Assembly (NCBI GenBank): GCA_046758445.1
Contig: JBHIAE010000078.1
Span: 1 to 10,481, forward strand
Reading direction: 5' to 3'
DNA length: 10,481 bases
Source: Candidatus Thorarchaeota archaeon
GTDB taxonomy: Archaea; Asgardarchaeota; Thorarchaeia; Thorarchaeales; Thorarchaeaceae
Below, one piece after another: positions 4,805-6,891 of this stretch; the first letter of the stretch is position 1; the number at the start of each line of letters is the position of its first letter. Made by a program: the position numbers and the translations under genes. The notes below the pieces were generated by a model. The model did no database searches and was not told where the DNA came from. It worked only from the letters and a program-made list of their open reading frames with translations.

Positions 4805-4897
4805 CTACTCTTCTGGCTTCGCCTCGGCAACCTCTTCCTCGTCGAAGTCAAAGTCCTCTAGGGGCTCTCGAGCAGGAGTGGTCAGCATGGTCCAGCC
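4805..4897 (-). pseudogene. Orphan duplicate of the last 30 codons plus stop of the DPM2-like gene
   Basis: GWTMLTTPAREPLEDFDFDEEEVAEAKPEE* versus GWTMLTTPAPEPLEDFDFDEEEVAESSPEE* (6303-6211): 27/30 aa and 68/90 nt identical. Confidence 0.9.
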
Positions 4898-4997
4898 GGG
4901 ACATTCCGCTCCAAGGACAGGCCGTTCTACAGATAGAAGGGTGGTCGCCAAGAGGGAAGGTAAGGGTCTAGTAGCAAAGAACGGCATCAGATGTCCC
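4898..4997. repeat. Nested inverted repeats at the left islet junction
   Basis: GGGACAT (4898-4904)/ATGTCCC (4991-4997) encloses GCCGTTCT (4921-4928)/AGAACGGC (4978-4985). Confidence 0.55.
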
Positions 4998-6210: not shown

Positions 6211-6549
6211 TCACTCTTCAGGACTTGATTCTGCGACCTCTTCCTCGTCAAAGTCGAAATCTTCTAGAGGTTCAGGTGCTGGAGTTGTGAGCATCGTCCA
6301 ACCAATCCATTGCGCAATCACCATAATCAAGACTGCCGCTGCCCAGACTGGTAGAATCAAGAGGAACATTGGATCGGGGTTAAGGATGTCATGCAGAAGA
6401 GTTCCGGCTCCGAACGTATCAGTGACCCACTGCTGCAATCCCGGTCCAGTGAGTCCATTTTGGAGCAGAACCAGTGCCCACGTGTAGTATATGAGCACCA
6501 AGAACGCGAAGATGAATATCAGTGCACCAAGTATCTTTTCTCTGCCCAT
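6211..6549 (-). CDS. Small two-TM membrane protein with acidic tail, DPM2-like (dolichol-phosphate-mannose synthase regulatory subunit-like), 112 aa
   Basis: Two TM helices (KILGALIFIFAFLVLIYYTWALVLL; MFLLILPVWAAAVLIMVIAQWIGWTML) with YYTW and LP motifs placed as I recall them in eukaryotic DPM2. ATG 6549 lies 8 nt after GAGGT, with TATA-like TTTTATGA at 6612-6605. The CDS is well supported; the DPM2 call is tentative. Confidence 0.7.
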   Translation of the reverse strand: MGREKILGALIFIFAFLVLIYYTWALVLLQNGLTGPGLQQWVTDTFGAGTLLHDILNPDPMFLLILPVWAAAVLIMVIAQWIGWTMLTTPAPEPLEDFDFDEEEVAESSPEE

Positions 6550-6653
6550 CGACAACTACCTCAATTGGCGTTTAATGGAACTAAGACGTTTACCGCAGCA
6601 CGTATCATAAAAGGATTGCGCAGGAACAAGAATTGCTCTAGAGTGCAGTTGAG

Positions 6654-6827
6654 AAAAAACAAGGTTGAACAGTGCTCCGAGTTCTGTTGCCCGGAGGATG
6701 TCATTGGAGTATCAGTCCAAAGTATGCCGCACTGCGACACACCGTCCAGTGGTCTTCGTGTCATTGGATTCATAGTGCTCGAGGTCTGAATGAAGAACAT
6801 TCAGTGCCATTTCAGAACACTGCTCAA
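6654..6827 (-). ncRNA. Candidate stand-alone ncRNA, ~165-175 nt
   Basis: 16-bp terminal stem UUGAGCAGUGUUCUGA (6827-6812)/UCGGAGCACUGUUCAA (6680-6665) with 3 G-U pairs and no mismatches. Internal hairpins are present. TTATTA lies at 6854-6849, and a U6 tract follows at 6659-6654. Confidence 0.68.
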
Positions 6828-6891
6828 TACAATAGCTAATCGTCTCAGTAATAAGGCATACGATAGAGGAACTGCGAGTTCAGTCCACTGA

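Follow-up and report, generated by a model that had tools for sequence, protein, structure and literature searches.

The minus-strand interval between an aldo/keto reductase (AKR) gene (7719-6892, minus strand; Pfam E-value 2.8e-53) and a gene for a small DPM2-like membrane protein (6549-6211, minus strand; the DPM2 match is weak) raises the question of whether this part of the window (i.e., the whole 10,481-nt stretch of Thorarchaeota DNA analysed here) carries an RNA gene of its own and, if so, of what kind. The original prediction placed there an independently transcribed, structured non-coding RNA with paired ends, and considered that it might represent an undescribed RNA class. Judged from sequence comparison, the existence of a real RNA gene under selection is highly probable. 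The complete reading that we favour, in which a single-copy gene specifies a panhandle RNA acting through a protein-docking helix, is given a probability of about 45%, mechanism included.

The features of the locus are collected in Table 1. A check of the sequence agrees with the predicted closing stem, P1 (6827-6812 paired with 6680-6665 on the minus strand; 16 positions, i.e., 13 Watson-Crick and three G-U pairs), and the other elements named in the prediction are also present as claimed, namely the hairpin at 6804-6786 on the minus strand (perfect, 7 bp with a 5-nt loop), the decamer UCCAAUGACA in two copies (6768-6759 and 6708-6699), the TATA-like box CCTTATTA and the T6 run. P1 is the closing helix of the minimum-free-energy fold of the window copy. 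Its 5' strand contains an invariant 14-nt core, GAGCAGUGUUCUGA (6825-6812), and its 3' strand an invariant part, CACUGUUC (6674-6667). The TATA-like box, which reads TTTATTA(A/G) in groups other than that of the window genome, is centred approximately 26-27 nt upstream of G6825, and from this spacing a transcription start near G6825 is predicted. The TTCCTCT block may be a BRE or a factor site of the promoter of the RNA gene, and the T6 tract (6659-6654) is presumed to be an archaeal transcription terminator which also yields a 3' oligo-U tail. The TATA box of the downstream gene, CCTTTTATGA, shows high conservation throughout the family, whether the RNA gene is present or not.

Table 1. Features of the candidate RNA gene and its surroundings (window coordinates; groups A, B and C are the homologue groups defined in the text)
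Feature	Coordinates	Strand	Remark
Upstream block TTCCTCT	6865..6871	-	about 15 nt 5' of the TATA box; near-invariant in 11/11 homologues
TATA-like box CCTTATTA	6849..6856	-	constant spacing to the conserved 5' end in 11/11 homologues
Promoter-proximal block ATTAGCTA, around -10	6833..6840	-	kept in groups A and B, recognisable in C
5' strand of terminal helix P1	6812..6827	-	core identical in 11/11 homologues
5'-proximal hairpin P2 (GG / CUGAAUG, loop UUCUU, CAUUCAG / CC)	6783..6808	-	suggestive, not proven
Mostly unpaired segment with the first UCCAAUGACA decamer	6744..6782	-	conserved within group A
Hypervariable central hairpin region	6721..6743	-	fastest-evolving stretch of group A
3' segment with small hairpin 6720-6704, second UCCAAUGACA and motif AACAGAAC	6681..6720	-	
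3' strand of terminal helix P1	6665..6680	-	standard pairs in 94% of cells across 10 sequences
T6 tract	6654..6659	-	T-rich tract after P1 in groups A and B, less clear in C
TATA box CCTTTTATGA of the downstream DPM2-like gene	6605..6614	-	outside the RNA; marks its 3' boundary

The P1 stem is not decisive alone, because the folding z-score is modest and comparable stems exist elsewhere in the genome. The z-score calculation proposed together with the prediction gave -2.2 for the window copy on either strand, i.e., a value only modestly unusual in comparison with shuffled sequence, and copies from the other groups were similarly modest (-1.2 and -2.4); across the whole genome, there are 19 gapless stems of at least 16 bp with no more than three G-U pairs and spans of 60-300 nt. 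The genome was also scanned for stems of at least 13 bp (spans 60-300 nt) that are preceded by a TATA-like box at 18-36 nt and followed by a T-run. Both signals accompany two of the 1044 stems, and the second of these stems sits inside a 209-aa ORF, which leaves the candidate locus as the only intergenic one in the genome. It is the combination of features, rather than the stem, that makes the locus stand out.

Homologues were sought with BLAST, then with a covariance model and then with a pattern derived from the conserved ends. BLAST indicated two copies with 93% identity within the same genus (the relatives are described as 93-95% identical). The covariance model brought up more diverged copies, and the end pattern added further ones. 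The first covariance model (R1), built on three near-identical sequences, missed the homologues present in G005, G011 and G015, and negative results obtained with it therefore carry little weight. The end pattern was present in 10 of the 17 genomes of the genus and in none of the 383 other genomes of the phylum, and the improved covariance model found nothing convincing in the 15 other genera of the family. Finally, 11 distinct homologues were recognised, originating from 10 genomes of one Thorarchaeota genus and from one metagenome contig. They form three groups, i.e., group A (the window genome, G007 and G010), group B (G009, G013, G014, G015, G005, G011 and the metagenome contig) and group C (G016). 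The element is single-copy in the window genome and in every carrier, it occurs each time in the same neighbourhood and it has no flanking direct repeat, which rejects a MITE, an alternative that the prediction had itself named.

Common to all 11 homologues are the TTCCTCT block, the TATA-like box at its fixed distance, the block around -10, GAGCAGUGUUCUGA and a complementary 3' end with CACUGUUC; a T-rich tract follows the stem in 10 of them, with no clear T-run in G016. Within group B, the pairwise identity amounts to 0.77-0.79 for the promoter and 0.63-0.93 for the RNA, as compared with 0.13-0.5 for the upstream flank and 0.36 for the spacer behind the T tract. The fixed promoter, the paired ends, the T tract and a conservation well above that of the flanks thus support, at the level of sequence, the proposal of an independently transcribed minus-strand RNA gene. 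What would be expected of a generic trans-encoded archaeal sRNA gene is found here, i.e., an intergenic location, a TATA promoter, an oligo-T tract, a non-coding character and conservation above the background.

As to the strand, the prediction had argued that the three G-U pairs, being A-C mismatches on the opposite strand, suggest selection on an RNA. Taken alone, this argument is weak, as a wobble-based strand bias of this kind would arise by chance in approximately 1 in 6 to 1 in 10 cases (~0.1-0.2), but it is moderately strengthened by the relatives, in which the 3' strand of P1 toggles between A and G opposite U12 and U14 with the pairing kept. These changes, together with the G-U pair fixed at P1 position 5, are paired only in a minus-strand RNA; in a transcript of the opposite strand, they would be A-C mismatches. 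Stronger strand indicators than the wobble pairs are the promoter and the T tract. Pairing is broken at two P1 sites, i.e., at U11, which in group B faces C or U, and at A16, which faces G in G011. The search for covariation among relatives, called for by the prediction, brought conservation and one-sided P1 changes but no double-sided covariation anywhere in the homologue set, because the 5' strand of P1 never varies; the support for P1 therefore consists of one-sided changes.

The statistical weakness of this strand bias speaks for an inverted repeat acting at the DNA level, in which the 14-16 bp arms would be protein-binding or recombination sites (of a mobile relic, an invertible segment or operators ~147 bp apart). 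It is in line with such a repeat that the arms are far more conserved than the interior, that the interior length is constant and that the neighbourhood is an insertion hot spot (the AKR gene in group A, three small ORFs in G016 and a duplicate of the 3' end of the DPM2-like gene at 4808-4957). We nevertheless consider it improbable, as each genome has a single copy, which lacks a target-site duplication, the adjacent genes include no transposase or recombinase, and the interiors align no better in reverse orientation. Moreover, the repeat is preceded at a constant distance by a conserved promoter directed into it and is followed by a T tract, and phage and plasmid collections and viral contigs contain nothing similar to the element. 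The one pattern match in a viral contig was without every other feature and came at the expected chance rate, and no viral contig contains an exact copy of the hypervariable loop. An inverton was rejected on the reverse-complemented alignments and on the neighbours (i.e., AKR, ETF and small membrane proteins), and a retron RNA was rejected as well, for inverted ends are present but no RT gene occurs in the window or in the related loci.

The duplicate mentioned above (4808-4957, minus strand) is a partial second copy covering the C-terminal 50 residues of the DPM2-like protein with 58% identity, approximately 1.3 kb downstream of the intact gene.

The interior enclosed by P1 measures 130-138 nt in all groups. 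It is conserved within each of the three subgroups and not alignable between them: the group A and group B interiors score no better than shuffled sequence in either orientation, and those of groups B and C have a single short block in common. Group A changes in three places, i.e., the P2 loop (the P2 stem is invariant and the loop alone varies), the central hypervariable stretch and the outer pairs of the third hairpin. At the place of P2, group C has a 6-bp hairpin of unrelated sequence and group B a weak counterpart of 3-4 bp. The central region (6721..6743) shows one compensatory pair versus three broken pairs in group A, and an equally variable loop is located between AAGGG and CCCUU in group B, for which the consensus fold is without covariation and both variable sites falling into one predicted hairpin break it. 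The segment 6744..6782 of group A has only short motifs (UGA ... CGAA) in common with groups B and C; further downstream, AACAGAAC recurs in group C, and AACAAC occupies the same place in group B. Long unpaired sequence blocks are kept in group B with no helix support.

The inner architecture proposed originally did not withstand this comparison. The GCACU/AGUGC and GACAC/GUGUC arms and the outer UUGGA/UCCAA pairs are lost even in relatives with 93-95% identity (the small hairpin at 6720-6704 lacks its outer pairs in G007 and G010), and none of the internal helices of groups A, B and C, the predicted hairpins included, is backed by covariation. As far as the aligned sequences indicate, the promoter and the paired ends are what has stayed frozen, and the interior is constrained within sublineages only.

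A coding function was considered for the interior, in the form of a small protein translated from the 79-aa ORF at 6800-6561 or from shorter internal ORFs, with the paired ends as a structure of the mRNA. ORFs do occur in all groups, and in group B the first eight codons of one of them vary mostly at third positions. On the other hand, groups A, B and C do not use a common reading frame, and the 79-aa ORF in group A extends across the T tract and the promoter of the next gene. The group B ORF is frameshifted in G013 by the loss of 1 nt, and the stop codon is missing from three genomes. Substitutions are mostly non-synonymous (approximately three synonymous and nine non-synonymous between G009 and L031, in an alignment read by eye), and the internal ORFs have no Pfam match. 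All this makes a small protein very improbable.

With respect to known RNA families, the Rfam 15 search of the whole window gave no match at gathering thresholds, in agreement with the original prediction. At E ≤ 10, the group A and B copies yielded only chance-level snoRNA/sRNA matches (12-15 bits versus cut-offs of 35-67 bits) and the group C copy no match at all. No tRNA or tmRNA was found. A 5S paralogue was rejected, as the 5S rRNA of the genome (G000:C2:29256-29407) is located elsewhere and has no similarity to the candidate RNA; the SRP RNA and RNase P RNA also lie away from the locus. The G016 copy contains the stretches UAGCAUGG and CGCAAGG (L075 1575-1615, minus strand) in what we take to be the order of U6 snRNA, a likeness ascribed to chance, as Rfam gives no U6 match at E ≤ 10 in any group.

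Two observations concern the universal RNAs of this genome. The 5S rRNA candidate, with 152 nt, is approximately 30 nt longer than the model and scores 32.4 bits versus a gathering threshold of 38, so that it may carry an expansion segment. The SRP RNA (G000:C20:50319-50630) matches the archaeal model over its full length with 83.7 bits versus a threshold of 96.5, and the SRP RNA of Thorarchaeota may be divergent.

Reading by eye revealed no hammerhead, K-turn, C/D or H/ACA motifs. Box C/D RNAs have a C box (RUGAUGA) inside the 5' strand and a D box (CUGA) inside the 3' strand, a K-turn and guides of approximately 12 nt; here, the sole conserved CUGA is part of the 5' strand, where it forms Watson-Crick pairs, no RUGAUGA is conserved across the groups and the spacing is wrong. 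H/ACA RNAs carry their ACA box immediately after the basal stem, on its 3' side, and possess a pseudouridylation pocket and an upper-stem K-turn; the candidate stem is followed by ACC, CUU, UUC or CCG, never by ACA.

The prediction had further pointed to 6S, Y and vault RNAs as possible analogues, and no positive evidence for this was obtained. 6S RNA forms an extended, imperfect rod whose central bubble imitates an open promoter of the bacterial sigma-70 polymerase. The candidate is similar in being a putative stable RNA with paired ends (6S RNA has ~180 nt), but the folds of groups A, B and C consist of one closing helix with a multi-branched or mostly open, poorly structured interior, and Rfam gives no match. 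With Y and vault RNAs of eukaryotes and the bacterial YrlA, it has in common paired 5' and 3' ends, an oligo-U tail, a fast-evolving interior, a kept length and a size within 90-200 nt. Unlike them, it has no covariance-model match and no TROVE/Ro domain found in its genome, and it is confined to one genus and dispensable, so the likeness is architectural only. A search for PF05731 (TROVE/Ro60) in the 92.7%-complete genome gave no match, and the control search detected this domain in Deinococcus and Bacteroides; the vault repeat PF01505 also gave no match in the genome, but its control likewise matched no genome. As for the stem of the Y RNA type, the 16-bp helix is perfect in group A and contains one mismatch (U-C or U-U) in group B, and no conserved bulge resembling a Ro site can be defined. 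The idea of a new Y/vault-like class is speculative.

The history of the gene can be followed in its neighbourhood. All homologues are located in the ETF-beta/DPM2-like intergenic surroundings. The DPM2-like gene is present in 76 of the 86 genomes of the family, including all 23 high-quality ones, and all 16 genera, the majority of them element-free, conserve the gene's own promoter and leader. In the other genera, the DPM2-like promoter faces a divergent ETF-beta gene, and the ~150-250 nt separating the two contain no RNA gene. This divergent intergenic region is where the RNA gene of group B lies; in group A, the AKR gene is added upstream of it; and in G016, three small ORFs (73, 129 and 223 aa) are added around it, between the ETF-beta gene and the DPM2-like gene (L075 348-1967). 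G012 and G006 have a common deletion, in which the promoter and most of the RNA are gone and a remnant of the 3' arm and the T-rich tract are left, and G003 and G004 have no copy near the locus. From this comparison we infer that the gene arose within the genus and was inherited vertically, and that it is dispensable, given its deletion in G012 and G006 and its absence from the locus in G003 and G004. To speak of an undescribed RNA class was therefore an overstatement for an element confined to part of one genus and deleted in close relatives. The RNA is best filed as a genus-restricted orphan small RNA of the broad kind of lineage-specific prokaryotic sRNAs.

Concerning the rearranged loci themselves, the last ~20 codons of the AKR gene remain in G006 (L042), fused to the remnant of the RNA 3' arm, and G012 (L038) keeps the whole AKR gene with the same deletion junction, a pattern that, on comparison of the sequences, suggests that the region upstream of the DPM2-like gene has decayed in steps. 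Of the extra ORFs of G016, the two smaller ones, at least, look like membrane proteins, and its 223-aa gene is also present in G003.

The constant vicinity of the DPM2-like gene could also mean that the element is a cis-acting upstream unit, in which transcription through the element and its T tract tunes the promoter of the downstream membrane-protein gene (by interference, read-through or a processed leader). The element is always co-oriented with the next gene, 40-60 nt upstream of its TATA box, and for groups A and B this neighbour is the DPM2-like gene; G016 has a 129-aa membrane ORF in its place. Such a unit appears hardly probable, however, as the downstream gene, its promoter and its leader are conserved in 16 genera, mostly element-free, the downstream partner is a different one in G016, interference alone needs no invariant paired-end structure, and the lack of interior conservation between the groups is at odds with a ligand-binding leader. 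A riboswitch or cis leader was rejected on the same grounds, i.e., the group A and B interiors that align no better than shuffled sequence and a downstream gene with its own promoter, element-free in 15 genera.

The leader of the DPM2-like gene is of interest by itself. Its ~50 nt between the TATA box and the ATG (6549-6604, minus strand; L040-L046) are 0.9-1.0 identical across group B and recognisably conserved across genera, far above the neighbouring spacer, and the leader may fold with the GAGGU ribosome-binding site paired.

We propose the following model. The locus would be a stand-alone, single-copy non-coding RNA gene on the minus strand, with transcription starting at approximately G6825, ~26 nt downstream of the TATA-like box, and ending in the T tract at 6659-6654, which would give an RNA of ~165 nt. 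The first and the last 14-16 nt would pair into a long closing helix (panhandle) ending in an oligo-U tail and enclosing the ~130-nt interior. This helix, and above all its invariant 5' strand, would be the selected core, with the interior constrained in sublineages. The product is probably a stable, protein-bound or regulatory panhandle RNA. It would act in trans, its helix and U-tail protecting both ends and docking a protein (e.g., an Sm-like or other RNA-binding protein) and its interior carrying lineage-specific binding or regulatory surfaces. As an invariant helix is combined with a freely changing interior of constant length, protein docking is favoured over seed pairing, and the lack of complementarity to rRNA and to the adjacent leader beyond shuffled controls was counted in the same direction. 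The docking or sequestering mode as such is put forward tentatively, at rather worse than even odds.

The main competitor of protein docking is base pairing, i.e., a trans-acting antisense sRNA that would bind mRNAs through its unpaired interior blocks, or through its 5' strand after opening of P1, and thereby affect mRNA translation or stability, a behaviour known from further genus-restricted sRNAs of archaea and bacteria. The genus restriction, the own promoter and terminator and the intergenic site are typical of such RNAs, group B keeps its long unpaired blocks with no helix support, and ribosome-binding sites are conceivable pairing partners of the decamer repeat and of a CCUCC stretch in group A. 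However, the most conserved segment is locked in a helix of 14-16 bp, the candidate pairing blocks are not conserved between the groups, and the searches for targets found chance-level sites only. Thus, the 14-nt 5' end met only such sites in its own genome, genome-wide 10-mer counts showed no excess, and short complementary matches in five group B genomes included no convincing recurrent site. Duplex energies with rRNA were no better than those of shuffled controls (full-length duplex folding is a poor test), and complementarity to the leader of the downstream mRNA gave z-scores between -1.2 and +1.1. We therefore regard antisense pairing as unlikely, though it deserves more weight than the other alternatives considered here. 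A precursor of Argonaute guides was rejected, as no Piwi domain is found in the genome.

Under the favoured reading of a protein-docking panhandle RNA, the relation to other small RNAs can be described as follows. Lineage-specific archaeal sRNAs (e.g., those restricted to Methanosarcina or Haloferax) have been found by RNA-seq and act mostly via exposed, conserved pairing motifs. The candidate resembles them in being intergenic, in having a TATA promoter and an oligo-T tract, in its size (100-250 nt), in its restriction to one genus, in having no Rfam family and in being dispensable in some strains. The difference is that those RNAs are defined by expression, whereas the candidate is known from sequence and has its sole invariant part in a terminal helix of 14-16 bp. 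OmrA and OmrB of Enterobacteria have near-identical 5' and 3' ends and a variable middle, with the 5' end being a free seed and the 3' end an Hfq-binding terminator hairpin. Conserved ends and a divergent middle are also found in the candidate, but its two ends pair with each other, and it belongs to another domain of life with other protein machinery.

A more far-reaching version of protein docking, which we rate as doubtful, and below antisense pairing, is that the RNA is the scaffold of a so-far unknown Asgard ribonucleoprotein. A protein would read the invariant 14-bp panhandle and the U-tail, in a manner comparable to Ro and La on Y RNAs, and the ~130-nt interior would serve each lineage as its own effector or decoy surface, perhaps in the course of an arms race. 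If true, this would explain why the arms are frozen and the interior is replaced between subclades at constant length.

To our knowledge, few Asgard non-coding RNAs have been defined beyond the universal ones, and we know of no lineage-specific one with a known function. The general importance of the finding is limited by the occurrence of the gene in part of one genus and by its dispensability. Within these bounds, the locus is a well-delimited Asgard non-coding RNA candidate obtained by comparative genomics and a concrete target for metatranscriptome mapping or RNA pull-down. As it comes with natural controls (i.e., a precise deletion in relatives and three subgroups with frozen ends and unrelated interiors), it offers a tractable case for studying the birth and upkeep of an RNA gene in the archaeal relatives of eukaryotes.
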